Of a stretch of DNA of 28,966 bases, positions 2,031-26,484 are shown one piece after another. A model generated the notes under the pieces. It was not told where the DNA came from. It ran no database searches and saw only the letters and a program-made list of their open reading frames with translations. Position numbers and translations under genes: made by a program. Positions within the stretch are counted from its first letter, which is position 1; each line of letters starts with the position of its first letter. The stretch comes from a virus (Duplodnaviria > Caudoviricetes). The stretch covers positions 1-28,966 of the IMG/VR virus record IMGVR_UViG_3300037467_000326. One strand, 5' to 3'.

Positions 2031-2050
2031 AAGGCAGCGGTTATGCTTTT

Positions 2051-2071
2051 GAAAGAAATGTGCCGTAAAAT
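2051..2071 (+). promoter_or_regulatory. Candidate leaderless portal promoter
   Basis: GAAAGAAATGTGCCGTAAAAT; -10 ends 8 nt before ATG 2080; no SD. Confidence 0.5.
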
Positions 2072-2079
2072 TGAATTAA

Positions 2080-3204: not shown

Positions 3205-4751
3205 TGGAACTAGAAACACGAGATTTCGAACTGAGAGGATTCAGCGAGGACAGCCGCACCATCACTGGCATTGCCATTCCATACGGCAAGAAGGCCAACA
3301 TCGGTGGCGGCATGCAGGAGCAGATTCAGCGTGGTGCATTCGGTACCCCCGAGAACATTCCTCTCTTTTACGGACACAACCACCTTCAGGGCCGTATGCC
3401 CATCGGAAAGGTTGTAGCTGTCCGCGATACAGAGCACGGGCTAGAGATTGATGCCGTCATCTCTAAGACCGATGAGGGCGAGCGTGCTTACACGCTTCTT
3501 AAGGACAAGGTGCTTAGCAAGCTCTCAGCCGGATTCGTTCCGGTCGAAAACAAGTTTGACGGCGACACAGTTATCAGGACAAAGGCCGAACTAAAGGAGG
3601 TCTCCATTGTCCCGATGCCTGCCTATGCGCAGGCACAAGTCACGCAGGTTCGTGACAACCAAAATATTAAGGAGGTAGTCGAAAACATGACTACAGAAAT
3701 TGAAACAACCTCCGAGGATGTCACGGAGCTACGTGCGGAGTTTGACGCACGTCTTACGAACATCCAGCGTGAGGTATCCACCCTTGCACAGGGTGGCGGA
3801 AAGAATGACGCTGGTCCACAGTTCCGCTCAGGAATTGAGGCTTACCAGGCATTCCTAAAGGGTGACGACTCTGCCGTAAAGGAGATTCGTGCCTACGTTG
3901 GTGGAACTTCCGCCGACTTCGTAGCTGGTGAGGACTGGAAGGGTCTTCTAGGCGGAATCGTCAAGAAGAACCGTCCACTAGCTGAGGCATTCTCAAGTGG
4001 TCCTCTTGCAGATGGAGCAGAGAGCGTTACTTACGAGAAGATTGCTTCCGTAACCGGTGACGTTGCTGTTCAGGCTGCTGAGGGTGACGTGGTTGCAGCC
4101 CTCCAGGTCACAACTACAAAGGAAACTGCAACTGTTGAGACTCTTGCTGCTTACAGCAACCTCACGTTCCAGGCATTCCAGCGTGTATTGACCTCTTCTG
4201 GTCAGCTAACGCTTGACCGTCTTGCAGCTTCTTACGCAAAGGTCAGCAACGGCAAGGTCCGTACTGCAATGACCAGCGCAACTCCACAGGCTGGATTGAC
4301 TTCATACGCCTTGGCTTCAGCAACAGCAGACAAGTTCATTGCAACTGTCGTTGACGCTATTACCAAGATTGACCTAAACGGCGAGGGTGCTCAGGCAGAC
4401 TTCATCGTCGTATCTGGTGACGTATGGCAGAAGATGGCAAGCCTTGTTGACTCTGCAAGCCGTCCAGTATTCGACGTAAACGGAGATGGTTCTAACACCA
4501 TCGGTTCTTTCAACGCACGTCGCATTGTTGGACAAATCGTAGGATTGCCAATCATCTATGACTCTGGTCTCGCTGCATTGAGCTTCTACGTTGCAAGCCG
4601 TGACGCAGTAACAAGCTGGGAGTCCGCAGGAGCACCAGTACGTATGGAGGATGTAAACATCCAGCAGTTGTTCCGTACGTTCGCTCTCTACGGATACTTC
4701 GTAGCAGCCGCAACTAACGAAAACGGTCTCGTCAAGCAGACCCTTTCCTGA
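3204..4751 (+). CDS. Prohead protease-major capsid protein fusion
   Basis: HK97 protease motifs (ITGIAIPY, LFYGH, LSAGF, LKEVSIVPMPAY) fused to a capsid domain (GQIVGLPIIYD). Confidence 0.92.
   Translation: MELETRDFELRGFSEDSRTITGIAIPYGKKANIGGGMQEQIQRGAFGTPENIPLFYGHNHLQGRMPIGKVVAVRDTEHGLEIDAVISKTDEGERAYTLLKDKVLSKLSAGFVPVENKFDGDTVIRTKAELKEVSIVPMPAYAQAQVTQVRDNQNIKEVVENMTTEIETTSEDVTELRAEFDARLTNIQREVSTLAQGGGKNDAGPQFRSGIEAYQAFLKGDDSAVKEIRAYVGGTSADFVAGEDWKGLLGGIVKKNRPLAEAFSSGPLADGAESVTYEKIASVTGDVAVQAAEGDVVAALQVTTTKETATVETLAAYSNLTFQAFQRVLTSSGQLTLDRLAASYAKVSNGKVRTAMTSATPQAGLTSYALASATADKFIATVVDAITKIDLNGEGAQADFIVVSGDVWQKMASLVDSASRPVFDVNGDGSNTIGSFNARRIVGQIVGLPIIYDSGLAALSFYVASRDAVTSWESAGAPVRMEDVNIQQLFRTFALYGYFVAAATNENGLVKQTLS
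3669..3689 (+). promoter_or_regulatory. Internal SD and in-frame ATG (3687) for stand-alone capsid protein
   Basis: AAGGAGGT then in-frame ATG at the domain junction; conserved in unit B (ATG 19245). Confidence 0.7.
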
Positions 4752-4762
4752 GGTGATTTGAG

Positions 4763-5077
4763 ATGACGATGGAAGACCTAAAGGCATTTCTGGATATCCC
4801 ATCCAGCGATACCAGCCAAGACCTCCGCATTCAGGAATGCTGGACCAACGCTGGTGAGTTGCTGACGCTGGCAACAGCTAAGGCCTTCCGCGTCATTCCT
4901 CAAAGCGTATTGGACTACTGCCAGCTAAGGATTGGTAAAGACATGTTTGACAGTCGGAACACAACCGCTGGCGGTAGTCAGTTCACAACCTTTGAGGGTG
5001 TGACAAGTGCGCGGGCTGCAAGAGACCCATTGGCTGTTGTCGCACCAGTCCTCGCTATGTACGTGGTGAGGTACTGA
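4763..5077 (+). CDS. Head-tail connector/adaptor
   Basis: MEDLKAFL start, ARDPL motif, position after capsid. Confidence 0.8.
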   Translation: MTMEDLKAFLDIPSSDTSQDLRIQECWTNAGELLTLATAKAFRVIPQSVLDYCQLRIGKDMFDSRNTTAGGSQFTTFEGVTSARAARDPLAVVAPVLAMYVVRY

Positions 5078-5478
5078 TGTCAGCACAGTCAGACGCACGA
5101 GCGGAAATCACCGGCATTCTGAATGCCATCACGTTCAACGGACAGCCTCTAGTAGTTAGGGACAACCCAACGAACGTAAATCCATGGTGTGTAGTCATTG
5201 CAAGTGCTGACCCAGTACTTACCAATGAGAACACCAGTGGCTCTGTGGGCGATTACGAATACAACCTGCTATTGCAGTTTGTAGGCGGTAGTCCAGAAAC
5301 ATCCTCTCTGGCAGTCCTTGAGGACATGGTAGAGAGCGCAATTCTTGCGCTGGGTAACAGTGAGTACTGGTACCCAGGAAACGCAAGCGCACCTTTCGTG
5401 GGTGATGGTGGCGACGGAAAGGTCTATTTGACTATTACGTTGCCGGCAACAAAATACATTGAAATTGGAGGGGCATAA
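5077..5478 (+). CDS. Tail terminator/completion protein (probable)
   Basis: 133 aa between connector and major tail; synteny. Confidence 0.6.
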   Translation: MSAQSDARAEITGILNAITFNGQPLVVRDNPTNVNPWCVVIASADPVLTNENTSGSVGDYEYNLLLQFVGGSPETSSLAVLEDMVESAILALGNSEYWYPGNASAPFVGDGGDGKVYLTITLPATKYIEIGGA

Positions 5479-5873
5479 TGCCTACTAAGAGACTACGCAG
5501 CAAGAACGCATTCTTCAGCCTTAACGCCGTTGACTACTCAGACCAGATTGTTGACCTTGAATTGGTTGTAGAGACTGACGCACCAACCACCTTCACTGGT
5601 CCTGAGGGTAGGTACTTCCTACGCGGTACCGGCCTTGCATCTGTAAAGGCTTCAACACTGCACAGGTACCTACGTTCTAACCCAAACGTGGCTGCCATCC
5701 CGTTTGTCTTTGGTCCAGGTGGAGAGACACCATCTGCTGACAACCCAGTCTTCACTGGAACAGTCACGCTCGGTCTAGAGCCAAACATCAAGGCTGGTCC
5801 ATACGGCGAAACATCAACATTCACCATTGATATTGAATGCGATGACAAGCCAACCGAAGACCTAGCACCTTGA
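5478..5873 (+). CDS. Major tail protein
   Basis: VDYSDQI, PSADNPVFTGTV motifs typical of small actinophage tail tubes. Confidence 0.8.
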   Translation: MPTKRLRSKNAFFSLNAVDYSDQIVDLELVVETDAPTTFTGPEGRYFLRGTGLASVKASTLHRYLRSNPNVAAIPFVFGPGGETPSADNPVFTGTVTLGLEPNIKAGPYGETSTFTIDIECDDKPTEDLAP

Positions 5874-5883
5874 GGTTAAGCCC

Positions 5884-6234
5884 ATGACTAACGGAATTGA
5901 GGTCAATGGGACTGAGGCGGTTGCTCAAAGCCTCCAAGACTTTGCGGATGCAGTCGGTAAGCAGGAACAGACGTTCCTCAAGATTGGCGGCATCTTGGTT
6001 GAAGAGGCTAAGAGCATCGTTCCAGTAAGAACGCACAAGCTACAGGGAAGCATCGTTGCTAAGGCAACTGACAACAGTGTCACGATTACCGCAGGCAACA
6101 ACGCAGTTGAGTACGCAGGTGTCATTCACAGACGCAGGGCTTACTTGACAATCGCGCAGTACAACAAGGAAGACGAAGTAGCTCAGGTTATGGCTAAGGC
6201 GATTGATGGCCTAATCAAGCAGCACTTCGAATAA
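5884..6234 (+). CDS. HK97 gp10-like neck/tail protein
   Basis: AKSIVPVRTHKLQGSI and VEYAGVIH motifs. Confidence 0.75.
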   Translation: MTNGIEVNGTEAVAQSLQDFADAVGKQEQTFLKIGGILVEEAKSIVPVRTHKLQGSIVAKATDNSVTITAGNNAVEYAGVIHRRRAYLTIAQYNKEDEVAQVMAKAIDGLIKQHFE

Positions 6235-6770: not shown

Positions 6771-8472
6771 ACCAATCGAGCTTAAGGCAACCCTTGATGC
6801 ATCAGACGTAGATAAGAACGTCAAGAAGATGGCAGCCGGGTTGCAAGACATCCCAGATGCAGCCGGTAAGGCATCTGGGGAAATGCGCAACCTCGCAGAC
6901 TCAACAGACCAGACAGCTACCAAGACAGGCATCATGGCATCCGCTCTGGGTGCCTTTGCTGGTGGCCTAGAGGCTGTTGGACTGGAGAAGTACGGAGTAG
7001 CCCTCCAGGCATCTGCCGTTGGTGTAGACGTATTCTCCAACGCTTCTGACGTAGCCACTCTGGCTCTTGAGTCCAAGTACGTAAAGCTGCTTAGGGATAA
7101 GGCAGCAACCGTTGCCTCTACGGCAGCATCTCTTGCTGCTAGTGCAGCCTCTAAGGCCATGGCTGCTGGTCAGTGGCTACTGAATGCTGCCTTGAGTGCT
7201 AACCCTATTGGCTTGGTAGTTGTGGCTATTGGTGCCTTGGCTGCTGGACTGGTCTTGGCTTACAAGAAGTCTGAGACCTTCCGAAACATCGTCAATGGCG
7301 TATTCGGCGGTATCAAGGATTTTGTCTGGCCTATCATCAAGTTCCTTGGTGAGGGAGTCGTTAAGGCTCTTAGTGCCGTTCTGAACTTCGTACTCGGACC
7401 ATTCAAGGCTATTGGTGAGAAGTTTGGTCTGCTTAAGGATGATACGAATGACCTGAAGAAGGCCATTGTTGATACCGGCCCACCTATGGAGAACTTCGAA
7501 GAGTCACAGAAGAGGCTTGGTGAAGAAACCGACAGAGCACAGCAATACATTGATGACCAGAAGAAGGCTCTTGACGACTACGTTGACTCTCTGACTGCTG
7601 CACAGAATGCAGTACTTGACCTGGCGGATAAGCAAATCGGCGTTGCCGAGGCTACTGATGCTGCTTCTAAGGCTGCCAAGGAAAACGGCAAGACTCATGA
7701 CATTAATACAGAGAAGGGCCGTAACAACGAAAAGGCTCTACACGCTCTGGCTAAGGCAACCAATGAGAACACGGTTGCCATGGTTCAGAACGGTCAGGCT
7801 GAGCTAACCACTGCTGCTAAGGCAGAGGCATCCCGAAAGAACTTCGTCAAGCTGGCTACCCAGATGGGCTATTCAAGGGCTGAGGCTGAGGCTCTTGCTC
7901 GCAAGATGATTGCCATTCCTAACGTGTCTCGTGAGGCAAAGCTGAGAGGTAATGTCGCAGACCTTGATGCCAAGATTGCTGCTGCAAAGAAGCATCTTGG
8001 TGATAAGGGACTGACTGACCCTCAGAAGACCAAGATTAAGGCCGACATCGCAGACTTGGTAGCCAAGAAGGCGGCGGCTGTGAAGGAGCTAAACGCTCTG
8101 CCTAAGACCAAGACGATTGTTGTCCAGTGGAAGAACACAAGCAGTGGTTCCATTCCTCTCAACACAATCGGAAGCCTTGGACGTAGGGCAGCTGGTGGAC
8201 CAGTTGACAAAAACACTCCGTACATTGTTGGTGAGAACGGTCCCGAGATTCTTGTCCCAGACGGCAGCGGAACCATCATTCCTAACCACAAGCTGTCATT
8301 CGCCAGTCCACGCGGTACGGCTACGGCTGCTGGCAGTGCTCCGTCAATCACCTTCAACAACAGCACATTCATTGGTTCTTCAAAGGCTGAGCTTCAGCGC
8401 TGGCTACGTGAGCTATTGGAGTCCGACCTTCGTTACAACGGTGCTGGATGGCTGAAGGAGAGATTGGCATGA
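6760..8472 (+). CDS. Tape measure protein
   Basis: Ala-rich, QWLLNAALSANPIG and AGGPV..YIVGENGPE motifs; start set by alignment to unit B. Confidence 0.92.
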   Translation: MANRPIELKATLDASDVDKNVKKMAAGLQDIPDAAGKASGEMRNLADSTDQTATKTGIMASALGAFAGGLEAVGLEKYGVALQASAVGVDVFSNASDVATLALESKYVKLLRDKAATVASTAASLAASAASKAMAAGQWLLNAALSANPIGLVVVAIGALAAGLVLAYKKSETFRNIVNGVFGGIKDFVWPIIKFLGEGVVKALSAVLNFVLGPFKAIGEKFGLLKDDTNDLKKAIVDTGPPMENFEESQKRLGEETDRAQQYIDDQKKALDDYVDSLTAAQNAVLDLADKQIGVAEATDAASKAAKENGKTHDINTEKGRNNEKALHALAKATNENTVAMVQNGQAELTTAAKAEASRKNFVKLATQMGYSRAEAEALARKMIAIPNVSREAKLRGNVADLDAKIAAAKKHLGDKGLTDPQKTKIKADIADLVAKKAAAVKELNALPKTKTIVVQWKNTSSGSIPLNTIGSLGRRAAGGPVDKNTPYIVGENGPEILVPDGSGTIIPNHKLSFASPRGTATAAGSAPSITFNNSTFIGSSKAELQRWLRELLESDLRYNGAGWLKERLA

Positions 8473-10034
8473 GCAAGATTCGTAACTATGACATCGACTT
8501 GCTGACCTTCTGGATTGCTGAGCCGGGGTTCATTCTTGGTGAGGGAATCCTTGGTGTGAACAAGCTTGGTGGCGACCAAACGGCAGTACAGATTGACATT
8601 GGTGAGTTCTACAGCATGACCATTGATTCACCAAACACTACAGACGGCATCTTTGTGCATCGAGAGGTGCGCAGGCTCACCCTGAATGCAAAGGTAACTG
8701 CACCAATCAATTATGACGGCAAGCGCATCATCGTTAAGTATGACGACATTGAAGAGTTCTATGGGACTGTACGTGAGTACGACGTTCAGGAGTCATGGAC
8801 TGATGCTGTCAATACTCCTGAGGGGCTTCCTTATCGTGAGTACACGGTCAGCATTGTTGCCATGTCTGGTGAGGAGCGCTTTGCAAACACTCCTACACCA
8901 GACAAGAACTTCAATGGTCAGACGATGACTGACAGAGTTACAAGCTATCTCGGTACCAGCACCTACCTACAGATTCCAGATTCTGCTAGAGACATCAACT
9001 ATGGCCTTGCAGCGAATGCGCAAACTGCCAGTGTTGGGCATCTGGTTTATGCGTCAGATGACATGCCAAGCCTGCTTGAGTCCATCAGGAGCGAAATGCG
9101 CCTGATGAACTATCACTACATCTACGAGCCATGGAATTCCAACGTCATCCTGAGAACTAACTCACGATGGCTAGGACCAGATGGGGCAGACGAGTCAACC
9201 GCTCTCACCTTTACCGATAACCCGGCTGACATTGTTGTCACTGGTGGAGATAGCTTTGTTCATGACGGCAACGTCGTTGGCTATACCCAGCGCTCCCTTG
9301 GCAAGAACAGCAGTTACTTCATCAAGGGTGTGACTATCACAATGACCGACAGCAGTGATGTGACAACAACGTACGGACCATACCGGGCATCATCAGCATT
9401 CCCTCAGGATATTGACATCAACATTGGGCGTCAGTCTTCTGCTGGAGAAGCCTTGGCTAAGAAGATTGCTTCCACCTTGCCTCTAAGGTCTAAGGAGCAG
9501 CAGTTCACCTACAGAATCCGCACCAAGCTTCAGTCACGTAAGCAGATGGGTCTTGATGGTGAGGGACCGGGTATGGCGGTACTGAAGTCACAAGGTGTTA
9601 CCAGTCGCATTGCCATTCTTGGAGTGACTCATGTGGTCACCAGAGATGAATGGACTGTTGAATACGCATGTGGACCTGAGCACCTCATTTCACGCGAGTC
9701 AGACAAGCAGCCGTTCATTGTTACGGACTTCTCTGTGACTGAGAACGTGCCAGGAGTCCAGTGGAAGTTCGAATGGACAACTCCAGACCTGAATTCCAAC
9801 GTGCCGCTGTACGCAATCATTTACAGCAGTGGACCTGATGGGGTTGGACCTGGAGAGATTTACCGTGGGGCTGCAAAGGCACCGGGTGTAGTGGAAGACA
9901 TCTTCATCAGTGGTTTCGCGTCAGGCTTCTACACGTTCTATGTGTACTACACCAATAACCCGACTGCTGGTGACTACTCGATTAGCTACATCTACAGTCC
10001 GGGCTCAGCATCGCAGACGCTACTAATTTTCTAA
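8469..10034 (+). CDS. Tail tip/minor tail protein with C-terminal FN3-like beta domain
   Basis: Follows tape measure with ATGA overlap; GFILGEGILG N-terminal motif. Confidence 0.75.
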   Translation: MSKIRNYDIDLLTFWIAEPGFILGEGILGVNKLGGDQTAVQIDIGEFYSMTIDSPNTTDGIFVHREVRRLTLNAKVTAPINYDGKRIIVKYDDIEEFYGTVREYDVQESWTDAVNTPEGLPYREYTVSIVAMSGEERFANTPTPDKNFNGQTMTDRVTSYLGTSTYLQIPDSARDINYGLAANAQTASVGHLVYASDDMPSLLESIRSEMRLMNYHYIYEPWNSNVILRTNSRWLGPDGADESTALTFTDNPADIVVTGGDSFVHDGNVVGYTQRSLGKNSSYFIKGVTITMTDSSDVTTTYGPYRASSAFPQDIDINIGRQSSAGEALAKKIASTLPLRSKEQQFTYRIRTKLQSRKQMGLDGEGPGMAVLKSQGVTSRIAILGVTHVVTRDEWTVEYACGPEHLISRESDKQPFIVTDFSVTENVPGVQWKFEWTTPDLNSNVPLYAIIYSSGPDGVGPGEIYRGAAKAPGVVEDIFISGFASGFYTFYVYYTNNPTAGDYSISYIYSPGSASQTLLIF

Positions 10035-10051
10035 CAAAGGAGGAATTATGC

Positions 10052-10669
10052 ATGACATTTATTGATTTTACAGACGGCAACATCTTTGACGAAGCAGCAG
10101 CGGATGTCTTGATGCGTCAGACCAATATCCATTTGCCAACTACCGCCGACATTACGTCACAGCTTGGCAGCGGTATTCGAACGTTGGGCATGACTGCATG
10201 GGCTGACGATGTGGAGACTATGTACATGTGGAATGGCACCAATTGGATTCCATGGGCAAGCACAGAGAAGACATCATCAGTTGGCTTCACAGCAGGAGGA
10301 ACGAACATCACTTTCGGCAACGCAACTGTTTCTCAGAAGTGGCGCTACTCAGGCGGCATGGTCAAGTGGAACTACCAGTTCACACAAGGCAGCACAAGCA
10401 ACATGCAGTCCGGTAACTATGCTCTATCCCTACCCGTTGCGGTTCATGCTGACCAGCAATTCGGCGTATTGGGACAAGTCAGCTTCTATGACTCAAGCGC
10501 AACAACGATGTATGGCCGTATTGCTGTCAATCTTGGTAACACAACCAATATGGCTATGGTGTCTGAGGGTGGTGTACGTATGTCCACAACGAACCCAATT
10601 GCACCTGGTGTTGGTGACGTATTGAGCATCAGCTTGCTATATAGACCAGCAGTAGGCGCGTTCCTGTGA
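10052..10669 (+). CDS. Minor tail / probable receptor-binding protein
   Basis: Beta-rich, MYMWNGTNW, GNYALSLPV; strong AGGAGG RBS. Confidence 0.7.
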   Translation: MTFIDFTDGNIFDEAAADVLMRQTNIHLPTTADITSQLGSGIRTLGMTAWADDVETMYMWNGTNWIPWASTEKTSSVGFTAGGTNITFGNATVSQKWRYSGGMVKWNYQFTQGSTSNMQSGNYALSLPVAVHADQQFGVLGQVSFYDSSATTMYGRIAVNLGNTTNMAMVSEGGVRMSTTNPIAPGVGDVLSISLLYRPAVGAFL

Positions 10670-10752
10670 CAGAAGAGCAACTGAAGCTAGTAGCAGCAGC
10701 ACTCTTGCTGGGAATGGTTATCAGGATGCTGACAGACAAGGATGATGAATGA
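10666..10752 (+). CDS. 28-aa hydrophobic peptide MTEEQLKLVAAALLLGMVIRMLTDKDDE
   Basis: GTGA overlap with upstream stop; unit B copy differs only by two synonymous changes. Confidence 0.6.
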   Translation: MTEEQLKLVAAALLLGMVIRMLTDKDDE

Positions 10753-10776
10753 CTTCTTCTAACTCTCCGGAAGAAG

Positions 10777-10818
10777 GGCAGACTCTCACTTAGAAATAGG
10801 TGGGAGTCTGTCTATTTT
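10777..10818 (+). terminator. Terminator of structural operon
   Basis: 16-bp stem (with G-U pairs), GAAA loop, TATTTT tail; conserved at 26271-26312. Confidence 0.8.
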
Positions 10819-10826
10819 GACAGCCT

Positions 10827-10835
10827 TGATACGAT
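10827..10835 (+). promoter_or_regulatory. Extended -10 promoter reading across attP
   Basis: TGaTACGAT right after the terminator; identical in unit B. Confidence 0.6.
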
Positions 10836-10854
10836 TGAGCCTCAATATCCCTTC

Positions 10855-10984
10855 GAGAGATGAACCTACACGCTGATGTCTCGTACCTACTCAGTTCAAA
10901 CTTTCGGGTGCCAGATGAACGTCCACGACTCCGAGCGGCTCCGCGGGCTGCTGGACGTGTAAATAACGTGTGGATTCATCTCTC
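10855..10984. other. attP region A bracketed by an 18-bp inverted repeat
   Basis: GAGAGATGAACCTACACG (10855-10872) vs CGTGTGGATTCATCTCTC (10967-10984), 16/18, enclosing a host gene fragment next to the integrase. Confidence 0.8.
10876..10962 (+). other. miaB: 5' fragment of host miaB (replacement N-terminus)
   Basis: [28 protein letters not shown], the MiaB N-terminal GCQMN signature; last 19 sense codons all end in G/C. Confidence 0.9.
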
Positions 10985-11002
10985 AGACGTTCTGAGAGGT
11001 GA
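10976..11002 (+). promoter_or_regulatory. Hairpin occluding integrase RBS
   Basis: TCATCTCTCAGA-cgt-TCTGAGAGGTGA; SD GAGGTG in the 3' arm; ATG at 11005. Confidence 0.7.
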
Positions 11003-11004
11003 GC

Positions 11005-11760
11005 ATGACAATCAGACAGAAGCTCTATCAACAAGCTATGGAGCGAGGTCTACGTCAGACCACTGTCCGCAGTTACGAGACGCTATTAGGCCGACTGGGC
11101 GTCTTGGACCTGGACTACATCAGTCCAGATGACCTGTATGAGCGGCTGTACCGCATCGACAACCCCAATACCCGTAGGGCTGCTGTCATTGCCTGCCGTT
11201 CTGTTTTGGGCATCAAGCTCAAGATTCCCAAGGGTGTCCCGCGCAAGTACAACCTTCCTGATGAGGACACGCTCCGTCTTGCTCTGATGACAAGCCCGCA
11301 TGAAATCCGGGGTTTGTTGATGATGTACGGAGGACTCCGCATTGGTGAGGCATGCGCAACCGTCAACACAGATGCCAACGGAGACCAATTGGCGGTTACA
11401 CGCCAGGTCATCCAGCTACACAAGACGGGTGAGCCCACTGTCACTCGGATAGCCCCGGTCAAAACGACAGAGGGAGCTATCACCATCCCGTATTGGCTCT
11501 CTGAGCGACTTTCAGGAGTCACAGAGACTGCCAAGCCTGACAGTGTGCGAGAGAGCCTCAGAAGGGCAGGAATCAAGGTTGGGATAGCTCTCAACCCGCA
11601 CATGCTCCGCCACTGGTACGCAACAACTCTCCTTGAGCGAGGGCTTCCTTTCAGTCTTGTCTCAAAGCAGATGCGTCACTCTGACATTGCAGTCACGCTC
11701 AGGACGTATTCACAGACCAAGAGCAGTGATGTGCACCGGGTCTTTGGGGAGTCGCTATGA
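11005..11760 (+). CDS. int: Compact tyrosine integrase A
   Basis: GLRIGE (R), VKT (K), HMLRH, MRHSDIAVTLRTY (H,Y); alternative GTG start at 10999. Confidence 0.92.
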   Translation: MTIRQKLYQQAMERGLRQTTVRSYETLLGRLGVLDLDYISPDDLYERLYRIDNPNTRRAAVIACRSVLGIKLKIPKGVPRKYNLPDEDTLRLALMTSPHEIRGLLMMYGGLRIGEACATVNTDANGDQLAVTRQVIQLHKTGEPTVTRIAPVKTTEGAITIPYWLSERLSGVTETAKPDSVRESLRRAGIKVGIALNPHMLRHWYATTLLERGLPFSLVSKQMRHSDIAVTLRTYSQTKSSDVHRVFGESL

Positions 11761-11939
11761 CTCTCAGGAAGGCATCAGAGGTCTCTGTAGGTGACTTTGT
11801 GTCCATGTATGGGGCTTGGTATGAGGTATCGAGTATCAAGGCCACGTTCCACAACCCGCCGAAATTGGCGTTCACGTTTGAGAACGGCAAGACAGTCATC
11901 TTCAACCCTGAGGACGTGTTGCTATTGCTCGACATGTAA
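11757..11939 (+). CDS. Conserved 60-aa small beta-rich protein, function unknown
   Basis: ATGA overlap with int; near-identical protein in unit B with synonymous changes. Confidence 0.75.
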   Translation: MTLRKASEVSVGDFVSMYGAWYEVSSIKATFHNPPKLAFTFENGKTVIFNPEDVLLLLDM

Positions 11940-11973
11940 TCTGTAGTTGCCGGTTTCCTGTTTGCACCGGTAG

Positions 11974-12011
11974 TGGAGAACCCCAGTCAACCCCCGGCTG
12001 GGGTTCTTCCA
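11974..12011 (+). terminator. GC-rich hairpin ending the int operon
   Basis: GAACCCCAGTC...GGCTGGGGTTC; weak U tail; identical in unit B. Confidence 0.6.
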
Positions 12012-12031
12012 TGTCTAGCCTGAGAATGTAT

Positions 12032-12073
12032 TGGCACTAAGCTGCCACGTTCAAAATTGGCACTAACATGCCA
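12032..12073. promoter_or_regulatory. Two TGGCA-N6-TGCCA palindromic boxes
   Basis: 12032-12047 and 12058-12073; arms and 26-bp spacing kept in unit B while spacers differ. Confidence 0.7.
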
Positions 12074-12128
12074 TTCGCGCTTTACCATAAGTGCTGGTTA
12101 TCGGTCAGCAGCCATAACGAGAAATCCG

Positions 12129-12291
12129 TATAATGGAACATGTAAGAGACAAACACCGTGTTGGAGCAGAACACAGGAGGACTTACACCCACAGTTTTCA
12201 TTCCCTGATATGTGAATGGAGGAACCCCCGACCCTGCTCCGGTCGGGGGTTCTTCTTTTGCAAAATTCACATATCAAAGGAGCAAGCAGTA
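12129..12291 (+). promoter_or_regulatory. rep promoter (TATAAT) and structured leader with internal terminator
   Basis: Nested perfect 12-bp stems, U-tract, complementary 7-nt loops; conserved in unit B. Confidence 0.75.
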
Positions 12292-13017
12292 ATGAACATG
12301 GAAGTAAAGGCCCTATGGGCTATCAGAGACGCAAGAGGACTGAGCTACGCAGAGAAGGCCTTCCTCTTTGTCGTCGCATCAAGAGGCTGCATGACAGCCA
12401 AGTGGGACACAGCAGCAGCGGATATGGGCATGTCCAAGAACACCTACTACAAGACCCGCGATTCCCTACTAGGGAAAGGTCTCATCATCAAGGAGACCCG
12501 CTTCAACAACACAACGGTCTACGCAGTCTGCCTTGACAGTCTTCTTTCCCTCACAGGGAATGAGAATGAGAGCCCTGAGCAACCTCTTTCCCTCACAGGG
12601 AATGAGTTTTCCCCCACAGGGAATGACTTTTCCCTGTCAGGCGAAACTAAGGTAACTATTAAGGGAACTACTAAGGAAACTGATAGCGCTGTCGCTGACG
12701 CTCCAGCGCTCACCTTGCAAGAAGATGAAAGCAAGGAAGAAGAGCAAACAGTTGTTGAGACATCCTCCTTGCCTTCAGAAGGAACCCGGATTTCCTCATT
12801 CCTTGACAGGGAAACTCGCCGTAGGGAGGCAGCGGCTGCCGAAATGGCGCGGCTGGAAGAGGCAGAGCAGAACGTCTCAGAGGAAGAGCTAGAACGCAGG
12901 TCTCTTGGCAAGGATGAACGAGAGACCTACCGCGTCTTGACTAAGAAGATGCACATGAGCCATGCAGCAGCAATGGACGAAATCCAGCGACGAAGGGAGG
13001 AACCTGAGGAATGGTGA
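12292..13017 (+). CDS. Replication initiator (N-terminal HTH, internal iterons)
   Basis: LSYAEKAFL...AAADMGMSKNTYYKTRDSLLGKGLI HTH; lambda O-like layout; start by alignment to 27766. Confidence 0.8.
   Translation: MNMEVKALWAIRDARGLSYAEKAFLFVVASRGCMTAKWDTAAADMGMSKNTYYKTRDSLLGKGLIIKETRFNNTTVYAVCLDSLLSLTGNENESPEQPLSLTGNEFSPTGNDFSLSGETKVTIKGTTKETDSAVADAPALTLQEDESKEEEQTVVETSSLPSEGTRISSFLDRETRRREAAAAEMARLEEAEQNVSEEELERRSLGKDERETYRVLTKKMHMSHAAAMDEIQRRREEPEEW
12462..12681. repeat. Probable origin: palindromic iterons plus three 12-mers
   Basis: TTCCC(T/C)-N3-AGGGAA at 12462, 12546, 12588, 12609 and degenerate 12630; A(C/T)TAAGGNAACT x3 at 12646-12681. Confidence 0.8.
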
Positions 13018-13094
13018 TTGAGGATTGGGAACCAGACGAAGAGGACATCTACTGGTACTTGGTAATGCGAGAAGAGGATGGATGCTTTGACTGA
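13014..13094 (+). CDS. 26-aa acidic/aromatic peptide
   Basis: GTGA overlap with rep stop; MIEDWEPDEEDIYWYLVMREEDGCFD; frame kept in unit B. Confidence 0.5.
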   Translation: MIEDWEPDEEDIYWYLVMREEDGCFD

Positions 13095-13215
13095 AATCCG
13101 CCGGATTTTCTACTGTGACGCTGACCATGAACCAATTTCATCAACAGTCTCAGACGAATGTCCCTCTTGTGGAGAGAAGATGCGGGATATTGGCTACTTT
13201 GAATACATGTCGTGA
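13078..13215 (+). CDS. 45-aa zinc-ribbon-like protein
   Basis: FYCDADH...CPSCGEKMRDIG; conserved at 28549. Confidence 0.65.
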   Translation: MDALTEIRRIFYCDADHEPISSTVSDECPSCGEKMRDIGYFEYMS

Positions 13216-13257
13216 GATAATTGAAATACAACATCTGTCGTATATGTTGCACCTAGC

Positions 13258-13305
13258 GAAGAGCACCAGGATTTCTTGCCCTGGTGCTCTTCAATTTGGC
13301 TTTTT
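13258..13305 (+). terminator. Terminator-like hairpin
   Basis: Perfect 13-bp GAAGAGCACCAGG/CCTGGTGCTCTTC followed by T-rich tail; only the loop varies in unit B. Confidence 0.7.
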
Positions 13306-13375
13306 AAAACAAGCAATGAGATAATGAATATATGAGGTTGAAAGACCTTAAATACGCTAGGAGTAACAATGACGA

Positions 13376-13930
13376 ATGAAGACATGCAAGTTTGAGCAAG
13401 ATGGGGTTAGGTGCGAACGCAAGCACTCAGCCCGTGGTTGGTGCGCAACGCACTACCAGCAGCAGTACCTATTTGGTGAGACGTGGCCTATCGGGTCACC
13501 TGGACTCCCAAGAGGAAAGACGCTCGACACACTGGACAAGCCAAAGACCTGCCACTGTGGCAAGCCGGTAAGAAGCAAGGGCCTTTGTGCGAACCACTAT
13601 CAAAGCGAGTACTACCAGCAGGGCAAGGCTGAGCGTCGAAAGACAAACAACAAGACCTTTGTAGGCAACAAGGGTGCTCACCTACGCATCAAGGCACAGC
13701 TAGGCAAGGCAGCCAATTACCAGTGCAACAACCTGGACTGTGACAAGCAGGCTCTTGACTGGAGTCTCAATCACGATGCACAGGAGATTTACACAGGTGT
13801 TGGACTCGCGGGTATTGGGCGAGCGTTCAGCCTGGACATCTTTAGCTATGAACCCCTGTGCCGCACTTGTCATATGGAGAAGGACGGCACGCTAGGAATC
13901 AACTTCCGAAAGACCGGGGGTTCAGAATGA
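13376..13930 (+). CDS. Zn-finger repeat protein with C-terminal HNH-like domain
   Basis: Two C..C..RG(W/L)C..HY-type motifs; ALDWS...YEPLCRTCH. Confidence 0.7.
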   Translation: MKTCKFEQDGVRCERKHSARGWCATHYQQQYLFGETWPIGSPGLPRGKTLDTLDKPKTCHCGKPVRSKGLCANHYQSEYYQQGKAERRKTNNKTFVGNKGAHLRIKAQLGKAANYQCNNLDCDKQALDWSLNHDAQEIYTGVGLAGIGRAFSLDIFSYEPLCRTCHMEKDGTLGINFRKTGGSE

Positions 13931-14082
13931 TTGCCTTGCTTATCATCACAGGCCTACTGACTGGCTACCTTTTCGCCGGGGCTGTCACAGGAAAGCTAAA
14001 GCGACACAACGCAGCAAACGAATTCAGGGTCAGCGAGGAGCTACCCACAAGAACACTATTTCAAAGGAGAGTACAGAGATGA
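13927..14082 (+). CDS. 51-aa membrane protein
   Basis: MIALLIITGLLTGYLFAG hydrophobic N-terminus, basic tail; ATGA overlaps at both ends. Confidence 0.6.
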   Translation: MIALLIITGLLTGYLFAGAVTGKLKRHNAANEFRVSEELPTRTLFQRRVQR

Positions 14083-14288
14083 ACGAAACACAGGCAGACG
14101 CACTACAGCAGGCATCAGCAGAGTTGCAGGCACGTATTGATGACCTAAAGAGTCAGAAGGATGCAGCAGAGCAAGCCCTTGAGAACGTAGCAGCATTGCT
14201 CCCAGCATTTGAGGAGAAGCTTGCATCACTTAAGGACGGGCTACCAGAGGCTCAGCCAACGGTCATTGACGGAGGTGCGAGCGCATGA
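14079..14288 (+). CDS. Coiled-coil hypothetical protein
   Basis: AAGGAG RBS; heptad pattern. Confidence 0.7.
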   Translation: MNETQADALQQASAELQARIDDLKSQKDAAEQALENVAALLPAFEEKLASLKDGLPEAQPTVIDGGASA

Positions 14289-14740
14289 AGAAGACAATCA
14301 AGTACTCACTTATTGGGATTGCCGGAATCCTAGGGCTACTCACAACCATTGGAATCGTTGGTGCTATCGCGGGGGTAGACACCAAGCCTGAGGCAAAGAC
14401 AGTTGTACAGACACCAGCTGTAGCACCACAGCCAGCAAAGCCAGCGGTAAAGGCAACACCAGCAGTCAAGCCAACACCAAAGCCGAGCACAAACGCGCCG
14501 GTTACAAGAGAGGATGCCTACCTCATTGTCATGCGTCACGAATACCCACAGCTAAAGAAGACCAGTGACAAGGTATTGCTCAATGCAGGGCACTCAGTCT
14601 GCGACATGTACAAGGCTGGCTACACCTTTGAAGAAGTTGCCTACGCAGCCATTGATAGTGGCCTGGACGCACAAACAGCCGGGTTCTTGATTGGTGCATC
14701 AACAGCAGCCTTCTGCCCTCAGTACAGTGATGCCTCATGA
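14285..14740 (+). CDS. Membrane-anchored DUF732-like protein
   Basis: N-terminal TM helix, P/A/K linker, AGHSVCD...FLIGASTAAFCPQY. Confidence 0.75.
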   Translation: MKKTIKYSLIGIAGILGLLTTIGIVGAIAGVDTKPEAKTVVQTPAVAPQPAKPAVKATPAVKPTPKPSTNAPVTREDAYLIVMRHEYPQLKKTSDKVLLNAGHSVCDMYKAGYTFEEVAYAAIDSGLDAQTAGFLIGASTAAFCPQYSDAS

Positions 14741-14907
14741 ATGACGCAAAGCAACACGTCATTAAGACTCGCATTGAGTACTTGGAAGAACAGGTACGGG
14801 TCAACAACGACTACCTCAAGACCAGGCTTACGCAGGTTGCCGAGCTAGAACGAACGATTAAGAAGTTTGAGGATGAGCTAGAAGCTCTCCGAGAGGAGGA
14901 CGAATGA
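14737..14907 (+). CDS. 56-aa coiled-coil hypothetical protein
   Basis: MNDAKQHVIKTRIEYLEEQ...; ATGA overlaps at both ends. Confidence 0.65.
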   Translation: MNDAKQHVIKTRIEYLEEQVRVNNDYLKTRLTQVAELERTIKKFEDELEALREEDE

Positions 14908-15149
14908 CAACCAAGAAGACACCAGTTGAGAAGGCAGTAGAGATTCTTACTCCCTACGTCGAAGGCTCAGAGCTTTTCGATAAGCCGGAACAGGGATGGG
15001 AAGTAACCATCCAGAACGGACCAAAGAAGCTAACGCTCACGTTCGCAACTGAAGAGGAATACGTATGGTTCCGCAAGACGACAGGCGTAGTACGCAACCC
15101 AAAGCGCGTGGACCTGGACAAGGCAGTGAACCTAGTAGCAGTGCAGTGA
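14904..15149 (+). CDS. Hypothetical protein
   Basis: AGGAGG RBS, 81 aa. Confidence 0.65.
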   Translation: MTTKKTPVEKAVEILTPYVEGSELFDKPEQGWEVTIQNGPKKLTLTFATEEEYVWFRKTTGVVRNPKRVDLDKAVNLVAVQ

Positions 15150-15171
15150 GCCTTATGGCTCTAGCAAGACC

Positions 15172-15213
15172 AGAGGCAGCCAGCAAATACCGTGAACATA
15201 GCTGGCTGCCTCT
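15172..15213. other. Perfect 13-bp inverted repeat before the HNH gene
   Basis: AGAGGCAGCCAGC-N16-GCTGGCTGCCTCT. Confidence 0.65.
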
Positions 15214-15250
15214 TGCACGAATAGCGCGGGTTATCAGAGAGGAGGTACCA

Positions 15251-15547
15251 ATGTCAGAACAGAGCATGAGAGGACCAGCCTGGAAGAAGACAGCAGAAGC
15301 AATCAAGAAGAGGGACAACTACACATGCGTCTATCAATGGGGCAACTGCTCCTACGACACAGACCTAACGGTTGACCACATCATTCCGCTGGCAGTGTGG
15401 AAGGTGGAGTTCCCAGACGATGACCCAAACCAGGACTGGAATCTAGCAACGGCATGCAGGAGTTGTAACGGCAGCAAGAAGGACAAGAGATTGACAAGAA
15501 GGAATTGGGTAGACCCTGAGGTATTCCCAGAAGGACTACTGAGATAA
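15251..15547 (+). CDS. Packaging-associated HNH endonuclease (HK97 gp74-like position)
   Basis: RDNYTC...TVDHIIP...NLATACRSCN; GGAGGT RBS; upstream of terS. Confidence 0.88.
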   Translation: MSEQSMRGPAWKKTAEAIKKRDNYTCVYQWGNCSYDTDLTVDHIIPLAVWKVEFPDDDPNQDWNLATACRSCNGSKKDKRLTRRNWVDPEVFPEGLLR

Positions 15548-15873
15548 GCAGGCAGGAATACCCAATAGGAAGAACCGTGACAGGGCAAATACCAGAACCG
15601 TCAATGAACTCTCCAATGAAACTTCCACGATGCGGAAATAGTCGGCGCATACCGAATGAATATCCAGGCATAGGGGATGGATATGCATGGGTAATGCATG
15701 GTCATTCACGCATTCAGGCTTGAATAGGAGCGTTTTTCTCAGGATGAGTTTGAACACCGTCAGTTGTACCCCAAATTGAATACCCAGGCCGGCAAAAATG
15801 TGGACCGTATTTGAAAAGAAATGGCGGTAAAATGGGAATATATCGAAGAAAACGGAGGTGCTTTTAGGCACAA
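15548..15873. other. Non-coding HNH-terS gap, probable cos/packaging region
   Basis: Canonical location; exact cut site not determinable from sequence. Confidence 0.5.
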
Positions 15874-16128
15874 ATGGCAACAGGACAGTACTTGAAGGCA
15901 GTTAGGAAGTTCCTACGTAACGCAGACTGGCTTACGGAGGAACATGAGCCAATGATTGTTCACCTGACTTCCCTTGCTCGCACTTTGGACAAGGAGTTTG
16001 AAGAAACCGGCAAGGTTCCGCAAGGAATCGGCGGGGTTTTTGGTGTGACATGGGGTCGCTTGCAGAAGCCAGTAGATAAGACGGCAAAGAAGGACGAAGA
16101 GACAGACCCCATCTTGAATTTCAGTTGA
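15874..16128 (+). CDS. terS: Terminase small subunit (B)
   Basis: Homolog of 259-516. Confidence 0.75.
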   Translation: MATGQYLKAVRKFLRNADWLTEEHEPMIVHLTSLARTLDKEFEETGKVPQGIGGVFGVTWGRLQKPVDKTAKKDEETDPILNFS

Positions 16129-17597
16129 GCAGACCTCTATGGATGCCAACGCGCTACACACCATCCCTCACAGGTACGGAGGAGTTTGTCACTGATGGAG
16201 ACAGACTCCTCCAGGTCATTGACAAGTACTGGATTGAGGAAGATGTAGACGGCAGATTCGTCCTTGACGACTGGCAGCGTTGGCTAATCAGACATGTCTT
16301 GGAGAGATACCCAGACGATTACCCAGACCCTCAGCTAGCAGGACGCTTGCGTTGGCGTCAGGTGGTTATCTCTATGGGTCGCCAGAACGGTAAGTCTGTT
16401 CTAGGGGCAATCTTTGGCGTCTACGGCTTGCTGTTCCACATGCACGCTCCAAGAGTTGTCGGCCTGGGCTACAGCCAGAAGACAGCCAAGATTGTCTATG
16501 ACCGTGTGTCGTACACCATCAACACTCAGCCGGTATTCAAGAAGGTTGTGCGGGTAACGAAGGTTACCGGCATGAAGCGCAAGGATGCTCCAGGCGAATA
16601 CATCATCAAGCCTGCTTCCGAGAAGGCTATCCAGGGATTCCCTATCACCCTTTGCGTCTTCGATGAAATGCACATCACCCCAGAAGCTCTCTGGAATGCA
16701 GCCAAGCAGGGCATGAAGACCAAGGAAGACGGAATCATCATTGGCCTAACAACCGCTGGTGATACCAACAGCGTCTTGCTTAACAAGCTCTACAAGGAGC
16801 TTGAGGGAATCATCTCTGCAACCGCCGCTGCCGACACAGACGAGACCAGCCGCCTGGGCGGGTTCATCTGGGAAGCCCCCGAGGGTGCCTCACTGACCAC
16901 AGAAGGGGCTGTAGAGGCTGCTAACCCGGCTGTCGCATGTGGACGTGTCCCTGTGGCTGTCGTGCGCTCAGATGCCGCCTCAGACCCTTGGGTAGAGCAA
17001 CAGCGCTATGTCCTCAACAGGTTCGTAGATGTCTTCAATTCGTGGATTGAGATGCCGCTATGGAATGCCTGTGTCGGCAAGGGACCGGTTCTGAGTGAAG
17101 GTGGACCATACGTCTTTGCAATTGATGCAGCAGACGTTATGAACACGGCGACTATCACCATGACAACCAAGAAGGGTGACGTTGTTAAGTCACGAATGGT
17201 GGCAAGTCTGGTCAAGCCAACAACTGACCAGCTATTCAAGTACTGCAAGTACCTACGCAAGAAGTACGGACGCTCAGCCTTTGTCGTGTATAAGCGTTCT
17301 CTCAATGAGCTAGGGGAGAAGCTGAAAGAGCAGGGCTTTGAGGTTTACAACCTGAGTGACAGTGAGTTCTCAGAGGCTTGCAAGACCACCTACCGCCTAA
17401 TCACCCGTAAGCAGCTTGAGGTACGCAATGAGGAAGTTCTGAAGATGCAGGTACCACGGGCTATCCGGAAGAACTACTACTCAGGGTGGAAGTTGGACAA
17501 AACACATACCAGCGTGGAACTGGATGCACTGTATGCGACCGTCATTGGTGCATACATTGCCGAAACTAAGAAGATTGGACAGGCAGCAATCTGGTAA
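16125..17597 (+). CDS. terL: Terminase large subunit (B)
   Basis: GRQNGKS, CVFDEMH, LTTAG, VFAID. Confidence 0.95.
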   Translation: MSRPLWMPTRYTPSLTGTEEFVTDGDRLLQVIDKYWIEEDVDGRFVLDDWQRWLIRHVLERYPDDYPDPQLAGRLRWRQVVISMGRQNGKSVLGAIFGVYGLLFHMHAPRVVGLGYSQKTAKIVYDRVSYTINTQPVFKKVVRVTKVTGMKRKDAPGEYIIKPASEKAIQGFPITLCVFDEMHITPEALWNAAKQGMKTKEDGIIIGLTTAGDTNSVLLNKLYKELEGIISATAAADTDETSRLGGFIWEAPEGASLTTEGAVEAANPAVACGRVPVAVVRSDAASDPWVEQQRYVLNRFVDVFNSWIEMPLWNACVGKGPVLSEGGPYVFAIDAADVMNTATITMTTKKGDVVKSRMVASLVKPTTDQLFKYCKYLRKKYGRSAFVVYKRSLNELGEKLKEQGFEVYNLSDSEFSEACKTTYRLITRKQLEVRNEEVLKMQVPRAIRKNYYSGWKLDKTHTSVELDALYATVIGAYIAETKKIGQAAIW

Positions 17598-17646
17598 AAG
17601 GCAGCGGTTATGCTTTTGAAAGAAATGTGCCGTAAAATGTAATTAA

Positions 17647-18774
17647 ATGAGCAAGTTCATGGATTGGCTGACAGGAGAAAGCTATAGGACATCAATCGTT
17701 GATGACATTATTGCTAAGGCACCAACACAGCCACTAGAGAAGAGGGATGCACCAAGCATTCCGCCGCCTGGGTACGTAGCACGTACACCAGGAGCACCGG
17801 TCACCATCGAAACGGCTTTGAGTCTCTCAGTCGTTTACAGGTCTGTGTCCGTTCTAGCAACCATCATCAGCCAGCTTGAGCTAACAGTCTCCACAAGCAG
17901 TGGAAAGCCACTGGCTAAGTTGCCGGACATCATTGCAAGGCCTGACTATCAGATTCCTCTATCAGAGTTTCTGAAGAAGACCGTTACCAGCCTTGCCACG
18001 TATGGCAATGCGTACTGGCGTCTATGGCGCACAGACTCACAAGCAATGCCATCAAGGGTCGAGGTGCTTAACCCCAACAGCGTCAGCATTGAGTACGACG
18101 CTGACGACAACAAGGTGTTTGTCTACAAGGGTCGCAACGGTAAGACGGTTCGCTTGCAGCCATGGCAGGTCACCCACCTAAAGCTGATGGTCAACTTTGA
18201 GACCAATGTTGATTACGGCTCAGGACCAATCCAGCGATGCCCAGAAGAGATTCAGCATGCTCTAGACCTTAGGGACTATGCACGCAGGGTATTCAGTGAG
18301 TACCCAAGCGGAATTGTCAGCGTAGAAGGCTACCTAGACGAAGATGAGCGTGCCGCATACAAGGCAGCTTGGTACGCAGAACAGGTAAATGGCGAGCGCA
18401 TCAGGTTCATGGGAAACAAGGCCAGCTACCAGCAGCTGGAGCAGAACCCTGAGACAACTCAGTACGTATCTGCACAGCGTCTTGCTGATGCAAAGGTAGC
18501 GCGGGCTTTTGGAATGCCACCAAACATGGTCTTGGTTGAAGACGTTTCTAACAAGACGTACCAGAACCTTCAGGACGTTGACAGGGCATTCATCCGCAAC
18601 ACGGTTGAGGAATACCTGACTGTCATTGAGTCAGGGCTCTCTGACCTCTTGTTCCCAAAGTCAGTCAAGTTCAACACGGACGCATGGCTACGTGCTTTGA
18701 CCGTTGACACACCAGCAACACAAATCAACGAAGGAGGGCAGCCAGGAGAAACACCAGGCAGCACTGAACAGTAA
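17647..18774 (+). CDS. Portal protein (B)
   Basis: Homolog of 2080-3204. Confidence 0.93.
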   Translation: MSKFMDWLTGESYRTSIVDDIIAKAPTQPLEKRDAPSIPPPGYVARTPGAPVTIETALSLSVVYRSVSVLATIISQLELTVSTSSGKPLAKLPDIIARPDYQIPLSEFLKKTVTSLATYGNAYWRLWRTDSQAMPSRVEVLNPNSVSIEYDADDNKVFVYKGRNGKTVRLQPWQVTHLKLMVNFETNVDYGSGPIQRCPEEIQHALDLRDYARRVFSEYPSGIVSVEGYLDEDERAAYKAAWYAEQVNGERIRFMGNKASYQQLEQNPETTQYVSAQRLADAKVARAFGMPPNMVLVEDVSNKTYQNLQDVDRAFIRNTVEEYLTVIESGLSDLLFPKSVKFNTDAWLRALTVDTPATQINEGGQPGETPGSTEQ

Positions 18775-20297: not shown

Positions 20298-20308
20298 GGT
20301 GATTTGAG

Positions 20309-20617
20309 ATGACGTGGGAAGACCTAAAGGCATACCTAGAAAAGACCGGCACCAGTGAAGACACTCGCATTGAGGCTTGCTGGGACAACGCTGGTGAGTT
20401 GCTGACGCTGGCAACAGCTAAGGCTTTCCGCGTCATTCCTCAAAGCGTGCTTGATGACATGCAGTTGAAGGTTGGCAAGGGGTTGTACGACAGCAGGAAC
20501 ACAACCGCTAGCAACAGCCAATACACAGCCTATGAGGGTGTCGCAAGTGCGCGGGCTGCAAGAGACCCATTGGCTGAGGTGGCACCAATCCTTGCTATGT
20601 ACGTGGTGAGGTACTGA
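20309..20617 (+). CDS. Head-tail connector (B)
   Basis: Homolog of 4763-5077. Confidence 0.8.
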   Translation: MTWEDLKAYLEKTGTSEDTRIEACWDNAGELLTLATAKAFRVIPQSVLDDMQLKVGKGLYDSRNTTASNSQYTAYEGVASARAARDPLAEVAPILAMYVVRY

Positions 20618-26270: not shown

Positions 26271-26312
26271 GACAGACTCTCACTTAGAAATAGGTGGGAG
26301 TCTGTCTATTTT
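26271..26312 (+). terminator. Structural operon terminator (B)
   Basis: Same stem as A with one G-U changed to A-U. Confidence 0.8.
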
Positions 26313-26320: not shown

Positions 26321-26329
26321 TGATACGAT
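26321..26329 (+). promoter_or_regulatory. Extended -10 promoter (B)
   Basis: TGaTACGAT. Confidence 0.6.
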
Positions 26330-26346: not shown

Positions 26347-26466
26347 GTCAGGAGTTGCAGGTAGAACGGCAAGGACTACACCATGCAGGACGGCGACGTC
26401 GTGGAGTTCCGCTTCAACGTCTGATGCTGGTTCTGCTTTTCAGTAGTTGCACCTGCAATTCCTGAC
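26347..26466. other. attP region B bracketed by a 16-bp inverted repeat
   Basis: GTCAGGAGTTGCAGGT (26347-26362) vs ACCTGCAATTCCTGAC (26451-26466), 15/16. Confidence 0.8.
26368..26424 (+). other. ychF: 3' fragment of host ychF (replacement C-terminus)
   Basis: GKDYTMQDGDVVEFRFNV*, the YchF C-terminal signature; all 18 sense codons end in G/C. Confidence 0.92.
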
Positions 26467-26484
26467 ACTTCCTAGGGAGTGTCA
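26463..26484 (+). promoter_or_regulatory. Hairpin occluding integrase B RBS
   Basis: TGACACTTC-ctag-GGAGTGTCA; includes GGAG and the A of ATG 26484. Confidence 0.7.

Follow-up and report, generated by a model that had tools for sequence, protein, structure and literature searches.

Armless integrases raise the question of how their prophages keep Int off, and the locus described here bears on it. The window, i.e. the whole of the virus record that was analysed (28,966 bases), holds two related genomes of ~15.6 kb, head to tail, from a family of small phages of soil actinobacteria. Each genome carries an int cassette (A and B), and in both cassettes the order is a -10 hexamer, a left arm, a host-gene fragment, a right arm, the RBS and int. 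The original prediction was that this common architecture encodes an RNA switch, in which the left arm frees the int RBS in the attP form and a hairpin silences int after integration. Our repeat analysis confirms the order, the coordinates and the counts of arms and hairpins on which this was built.

Features of the two integrase cassettes, in window coordinates
Feature	Positions	Strand	Evidence or remark
Terminator-like hairpin upstream of cassette A, closing the structural operon (putative function)	10779..10810	+	14-nt inverted repeat; counterpart at 26271-26306
TTGACA box	10817..10822	+	7 nt 5′ of the -10; not at -35 spacing
Predicted extended -10 promoter A	10827..10835	+	TANNNT by the distal arm in 25/25 elements
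Left (distal) arm A; predicted anti-anti-SD strand	10855..10872	+	direct and inverted repeat, phasing, folding
Phage-borne replacement miaB 5′ end, holding the attP common core	10876..10962	+	NCBIfam, Pfam, integrated relatives
Core half-site in miaB, copied by the arms	10914..10927	+	repeat search, miaB relatives
Right (proximal) arm A, inverted; supplies the 5′ strand of the RBS hairpin and is likely an Int site	10967..10984	+	
12-bp hairpin over the int A Shine–Dalgarno (10996-11002)	10976..11002	+	inverted repeat, folding
Integrase A, 251 aa, tyrosine recombinase, little room for an arm-binding domain	11005..11760	+	PF00589, phrog_1
Terminator-like hairpin upstream of cassette B (putative function)	26271..26306	+	inverted repeat
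Predicted extended -10 promoter B	26321..26329	+	
Left (distal) arm B	26347..26362	+	52 bp from a similar core motif in ychF
Phage-borne replacement ychF 3′ end with stop codon, attP common core	26368..26424	+	
Right (proximal) arm B	26451..26466	+	
9-bp hairpin over the int B Shine–Dalgarno (26475-26479)	26463..26484	+	folding
Integrase B, 250 aa	26484..27236	+	PF00589

The two genomes are 84% alike over 1-10846/15616-26340 and 90% alike over 11757-13494/27233-28966. The likeness ends just 5′ of the left arm and returns at the int stop codon, which indicates that the arm-core-arm-int block has been exchanged as a module. The cassette sequences had been called unrelated. This is incorrect for the integrases, which are 36% identical with a profile-match probability of 100%. 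Each genome has a unit-length contig: window positions 1-5887 and 8005-11074 are matched at 100% by a record of 15,997 bases, and 16484-28966 at 99.97% by one of 15,578 bases. The window is therefore most likely a co-assembly or a recombinant of two phages. Judged by their sequence, cassettes A and B are both uncut attP sites. The middle of the window tracks the B-type contig (99.5% at 13009-15721), and 10948-14288 is 97.7% like the A-type contig; a chimeric join likely lies somewhere in 13009-16484. Among the matches listed, no contig over 9500-17500 has a strand-changing joint at att and none bridges the A-to-B junction, neither of which carries any evidential weight.

Family and profile searches recognised terminase, portal, capsid, tail and integrase genes in the window, and PHROG and Pfam searches recognised no repressor family there. 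Neither genome has a recognised polymerase or dedicated lysis gene; tail genes are present, and the sole endolysin match in the window is on the tape measure protein. Both genomes are possibly helper-dependent. A conserved 60-aa gene (11757-11939 and 27233-27415), overlapping int at its stop codon, matches nothing in Pfam or PHROG and is a candidate excisionase (RDF) or regulator. Further downstream, a GC-rich terminator-like hairpin (12220-12261 and 27694-27735) lies within an optional upstream extension of a replication-initiator-like ORF and has a weak ctRNA match (E 0.37). Rfam gave three weak matches at E≤1 in the window, none of them within either cassette, and ARAGORN found nothing in either cassette.

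The fragment in cassette A has its own miaB start, 28 codons and then a stop, and its positions 10876-10959 match MiaB N-terminal models (TIGR01574, E 5e-5; TIGR00089, E 2e-5). The fragment in B shares 38 identical bases with the end of a G002 gene that scores as YchF (TIGR00092, 415 bits). The arms of A are complementary at 16/18 positions, with a U-G and a C-A mismatch, and those of B at 15/16, with one G-U mismatch, extendable to 21 nt at 86%. It is correct, as had been noted, that all of these mismatches but one in A can form G-U pairs. The right arm overlaps the RBS hairpin by 9 nt in A and by 4 nt in B.

As far as their sequences tell, Int A and Int B are simple tyrosine recombinases (CB+CAT) with an intact catalytic set. 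Both score above the PF00589 cut-off, and the catalytic residues R112, K153, H199, R202, H225 and Y235 are invariant across 32 aligned rows; the C-termini vary among relatives. The closest PDB relatives are Xer-like, and together with a length of 250-251 aa this leaves little space for an N-terminal arm-binding domain. More distant integrases (27-32%) occur in low-GC small phages (L009-L018, L070-L083; loci are numbered with an L). Three of these (L009-L011) have a tRNA-like fragment upstream, and L009, L010, L017 and L018 have predicted hairpins over or beside the RBS.

A sigma-70 scan called no promoter, missing the extended -10 of both A and B. Nevertheless, 25/25 elements have a TANNNT hexamer on the distal arm or a short way upstream of it, compared with 2% of 1940 host windows and 12% of 629 windows from the record. 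The transcript of cassette A would start near 10842, and it is the place of the -10 that speaks for a left arm within the message. The sequencing runs listed include no RNA run with this sequence. In L005, L048 and L049 the -10 and the distal arm overlap, whereas 2-23 nt separate them in the remaining 22/25, with a gap of 2 nt in L039; in L005, L048, L049 and L039 the arm would therefore be transcribed in part or not at all. A TTGACA placed 7 nt 5′ of the extended -10 (10817-10835, 26311-26329) is also found in L002, L067, L197 and MulchRoom (L221). Conserved but off the -35 spacing, it may be a factor-binding box.

What integration does to this arrangement can be read from relatives, for which 22 genome loci, 25 metagenome loci and additional viral loci were gathered. 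Both prophage ends were located for 20 integrated relatives, with shared cores of 14-101 bp. In these, one arm remains by int, and the other arm and the TANNNT hexamer are found at the far prophage end, which bears out the claim that integration parts the promoter and left arm from the right arm and int. The miaB start is rebuilt, and the far-end hexamer and left arm would drive the repaired host gene. More than 300 A-type and 82 B-type integrases were counted. A-type int is present in 7/401 Streptomyces genomes and in 5/381 genomes of the G002 family. B-type int is present in none of those 381 (0/381), and a search with it at E≤1e-50 found 4/401 Streptomyces genomes, two of which are A-type. 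Other targets, named by eye, are what we take to be glutamine synthetase genes, a DEAD-box-like helicase and two unnamed genes. Two loci were dropped, L211 as a chance pattern match and L206 for having no recognisable arm pair. A 7-bp overlap, guessed from half-site symmetry, was dropped since L153 differs inside it.

The orientation of the host-gene fragment varies. In a tree of 36 integrases the core is reversed in 26 and forward in 10, which needs 6 changes, at least 3 of them forced by well-supported branches. In most relatives, then, the target gene cannot read through into int; in reversed miaB elements the host gene points away from int. The integrase tree implies several flips of the att segment with respect to int. 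A (window 10950-10984) and L003 have in common the inner flank of the downstream arm, which suggests an inversion between the arms. In five reversed elements (L045, L052, L037, L080 and L159) the arm contains an ATG that could serve, in frame, as the start of miaB; miaB would then need a promoter leaving the int 5′ region, antisense to int.

The arms have the marks of DNA sites. Left arm A directly repeats the miaB core (13/15 identical), its positions 10859-10872 being a copy of the core half-site 55 bp away, and in miaB elements the arms hold a GAA-N4-CACG consensus in either core orientation. Arm-to-core distances are 44, 54-56, 65-67, 76-77 and 155 upstream (n=30) and 46, 56-57, 67-68 and 79 downstream (n=15). 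They follow a period of 10.85-11.05 bp with R 0.91 upstream and 0.96 downstream (p≤1e-4 against uniform draws, also on distinct values alone). These distances were entered by hand with near-copies collapsed. The uncertain picks, i.e. both L035 arms and the downstream arms of L037, L049, L151 and L165, were left out, as was L054, which nearly duplicates L033 and has a downstream distance of 65, ~3 bp out of phase. Constraints of reading frame could account for distances of 54 and 66, but not for 44, 55, 56, 65, 76 and 77. The spacing of A, 55/61, recurs in L163, L164 and L061, which have other target genes, and the 52/58 of B recurs in L136, though its core is flipped and comes from another gene; L039 has 66/50. 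Both hallmarks of accessory sites of the TnpI DR type, a core-like motif and a fixed geometry, are thus found in the arms. Since their sequence repeats the core half-site and their distance from the core is a whole number of helical turns, the arms are likely Int-binding DNA sites in their primary role. We consider it very probable that the armless Int binds them as accessory copies of the core half-site, held on one face of the helix. This may be how a simple tyrosine recombinase builds an attP without an arm-binding domain, and it bears on the steps proposed, in the available part of PMC3694055, towards lambda-type integrases.

In order to look at the arms as RNA, attP leaders, observed or reconstructed, were folded for 24/29 elements; left aside were L037, L049 and L151 (unclear arms) and L067 and L170 (no arms set). 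Including the left arm lowers the predicted cost of opening the Shine–Dalgarno (SD) in 8/8 forward elements, and a shuffled left arm does not. The changes, in kcal/mol, are 12.7->6.5 (A), 6.8->4.8, 10.2->5.6, 11.8->10.2, 10.6->8.3, 13.5->6.5, 11.6->4.6 and 9.9->4.8 (B). The ranges obtained for the two window hairpins are 11.2-12.7 without and 6.5 with the left arm in A, and 9.9-10.1 and 4.8-5.2 in B. Three more forward rows (L163, L164 and L061) drop by 4.0-6.4, bringing the total to 11/11 forward rows from about six lineages. Two mutually exclusive helices, one of them over the SD, are computed in all 11, partially in B, where the left arm merely shortens the RBS hairpin and a predicted 5-bp remnant still sits on the SD. 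The proposed release of the RBS in attP therefore stands as a computed effect, in part for B and, for two further elements, only as a kinetic one. In these (L043 and L050) the computed pairing of arm with arm is 0.00 at equilibrium and reaches 0.82-0.91 for transcripts that end at the right arm. It is predicted solely for the time until the RBS has been transcribed, and any release in these two would have to be kinetic. No release by the left arm is predicted for L005 and L048, where the -10 overlaps the arm, or for L170 (9.0 vs 6.9). Among 16 reversed or unoriented elements, 4 lose at least 2 kcal/mol at the SD with the left arm, and 6 lose at least 6 over a wider footprint, in which the start-codon region is paired to the right arm.

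The predicted lock is tighter where the host gene reads towards int. In a comparison of 20 elements (L048, L054, L080 and L145 additionally left out), the local SD-opening cost is 12.5 kcal/mol in 8 forward elements vs 6.0 in 12 others (p 2e-4), 5.3 in 28 window genes (p 7e-5) and 8.0 in 230 locus ORFs (p 6e-4), p-values that treat related rows as independent when there are about six forward lineages. This fits a lock that matters where the host gene reads into int. Over the wider ribosome footprint, occlusion in forward elements does not surpass that of GC-rich genes from the loci (p=0.46). A number of contrasts between sisters are weak, e.g. B at 9.9 vs L067 at 5.5, L170 at 11.0 and L136 at 10.5. 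It had been proposed that the hairpin silences int despite host read-through. The predicted lock supports this for forward elements, but with the core flipped in 26/36 elements of the tree, read-through from the target gene is no general premise.

In pairing with the RBS, the native right arm does better than 40 shuffles (≤0.05) in 6/8 forward and 3/12 other elements, and it beats every other family arm in 4/6 forward and 2/10 reversed miaB elements; that of A is no better than other family arms (62% are as good). Set before ordinary genes, family arms change the cost by a mean of +0.08 kcal/mol, with 1/112 trials reaching 4.9, hence RBS pairing is not a trivial product of a pyrimidine-rich arm. 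Hairpin sequences vary between lineages and the overlap of arm and hairpin is retained. We consider it probable that the right arm has been selected to pair with the int RBS, which would leave a host transcript entering from attL untranslated.

One argument for selection at the RNA level has to be given up. The G-U-capable mismatches had been taken as a sign of it, but across relatives the arm-arm helix has 12 G-U to 7 C-A over 17 pairs (p=0.36), i.e. no bias, and 5:5 in forward elements, a count in which L165 was mis-picked. The view of the arms as RNA elements is supported in part by the folding with its controls and has to be widened, as arms that copy the core half-site and are helically phased are not purely RNA. 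Arms that serve Int as DNA sites and nothing else, the outcome that the original prediction named as fatal to it, are not what the data point to either; as modelled, these suggest DNA and RNA roles both.

The most serious competitor nonetheless assigns the arms to Int-binding alone. On this account the RBS hairpin is a selected constitutive damper, promoter loss switches int, and arm pairing in the attP message is a by-product that hardly affects translation. Phasing and core likeness indeed require no RNA role, a G-U bias is absent, and release is partial in B and nil at equilibrium in L043 and L050. Promoter loss alone is reported for CyranoPS (10.64898/2026.10.29.762952) and promoter gain in ICEclc (PMC5812530), going by the available parts of both papers. 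However, if a damper of 10-15 kcal/mol were never released, Int would be blocked at infection as well, and the hairpin repeatedly draws its anti-SD strand from the arm. Beyond the Int-like site, the inverted repeat of A, L002 and B continues into that strand. We regard this account as doubtful, though well worth keeping in mind. The opposite extreme, a pure RNA switch with no role at the DNA level, would explain the folding results in forward elements, but an RNA stem has no need of an 11-bp period or of being identical to the host core. The arm sequence also stays family-specific when the core flips, and arms are kept where the -10 overlaps them, all of which makes this reading very improbable.

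The distal arm might instead be an Int operator, with Int bound near the -10 and transcript start repressing its own transcription and RNA pairing being secondary. The hexamer overlapping or adjoining the arm, as given above for all 25 elements, speaks for it, but the co-adaptation of right arm and RBS in forward elements is left unexplained. As the main role this seems improbable to us; as an added layer it is compatible with dual-use arms. Folded single-stranded DNA hairpins serve as recombination substrates in CTXphi attP and integron attC. Two inverted core-like sites separated by ~90 nt, and an integrase with no arm domain, resemble these, and the arms could in principle fold single-stranded phage DNA likewise. 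In the integrated relatives, however, each prophage end has one arm and the common core lies in the loop, placing the crossover outside the stem, and the terminase, portal and tail genes are those of dsDNA phages. We give this idea next to no credence and rejected it on the attL/attR anatomy of the integrated relatives.

Our preferred reading, towards which we lean with some reserve, is that the arms have a dual use, in the first place as likely Int sites and in the second as a predicted switch of translation. When the phage is excised or incoming, the left arm would be transcribed first, capture the right arm and open the int RBS. We find it rather plausible that Int is made from attP in this way and that its synthesis stops after integration. 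In the attL transcript the right arm would lock the RBS. Int would then be made at infection or after excision and be silent in the lysogen, with the same arms organising the synapse as DNA and gating Int translation as RNA. The chances are about even that this holds for the family at large, i.e. that an armless actinobacterial Int family senses its integration state by a protein-free RNA switch made from its DNA-binding sites, the RBS lock being re-tuned to read-through at each flip. If true, a phage can sense its own integration without a regulatory protein, and the cassette is a compact part of ~150 nt that reports DNA state without a regulator. It would also be a third answer, beside proteolysis and promoter loss, to the question of how Int is kept off.

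These two known answers come from small simple tyrosine recombinases of actinobacterial phages, to which the present integrases are alike, namely those of BPs, Brujita and CyranoPS (IntBrujita subgroup, PMC8138268). According to the available parts of the respective papers, the level of Int sets direction in BPs, with proteolysis limiting it (PMC3694055), integration deprives CyranoPS int of its promoter, and armless integrases are reported without directionality, their lysogens showing high spontaneous induction (10.64898/2026.10.29.762952 for both). In BPs, Brujita and CyranoPS, as described there, the repressor gene contains attP and degradation tags exert the control, whereas attP in our cassettes lies in the int leader between promoter and RBS and includes a host-gene fragment. 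Also unlike the BPs/Brujita type, no repressor was recognised here and the targets are protein-coding genes.

The only phage with a related integrase in the collection examined is the Streptomyces satellite phage MulchRoom (OQ784832.1), whose integrase is 59.5% identical to Int B. Its int leader has a -10 hexamer and a reversed ychF 3′ end, making up a predicted, unannotated attP at 7270-7450, and on this sequence its attachment site is predicted at ychF. The term attP is absent from the available portion of the main text of the MulchRoom paper (PMC10690885). Its arm-like sites resemble direct repeats, its predicted folding is wired differently from that of cassettes A and B, and it is a satellite phage, whereas the window genomes carry tail genes. 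MulchRoom and L067 share a long hairpin, which brings the predicted cost of SD opening down from 8.2 to about 4.3 kcal/mol.

Other systems share single components. The available text on TnpI/IRS of Tn4430 describes a tyrosine recombinase that binds two accessory sites (DR1, DR2) beside the core, shaping the synapse (PMC2847244). Our elements likewise have core-like motifs next to the core site, with putative binding. TnpI is, in that source, a resolvase whose two direct repeats both lie on the same side; our elements have one site on each side, mutually inverted, at variable whole turns, in a phage attP. The dusA-associated integrases target the 5′ end of a gene for tRNA modification, which they provide with a substitute start and promoter, as does cassette A, albeit with another target and host group; the terms 'inverted repeat' and 'arm' are absent from their text as available (PMC4482086 in part). 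The ICEclc Pcirc/Pint promoters offer a parallel at the level of transcription. As in our cassettes, a far-end promoter stands before int only in the excised form, and the portion of that paper available to us treats transcription only, with no RNA arm across the attachment site that controls translation (PMC5812530).

A literature search, most subscription papers being outside its scope, found no description of a recombination-gated RBS switch, in agreement with the original prediction, and returned none for miaB prophages. There is no such switch in the available parts of PMC8138268, PMC2869324, PMC10111431, PMC13587820 and PMC12822802. Promoter swap and anti-anti-SD logic are each of a known kind; their coupling through likely Int sites was not found in the searchable literature. 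Related in principle are also IS10, IS50 and lambda sib. In the fold-back inhibition of IS10 and IS50, RNA structure shields the recombinase gene from read-through, and in IS10 the inhibitory strand arrives with the read-through RNA. The lambda sib element lies 3′ of int, is split from it by integration and acts on decay. In our model, unlike in IS10 or sib, the strand would be an activating one that lies 5′ of att, is removed by recombination and doubles as a likely Int site.
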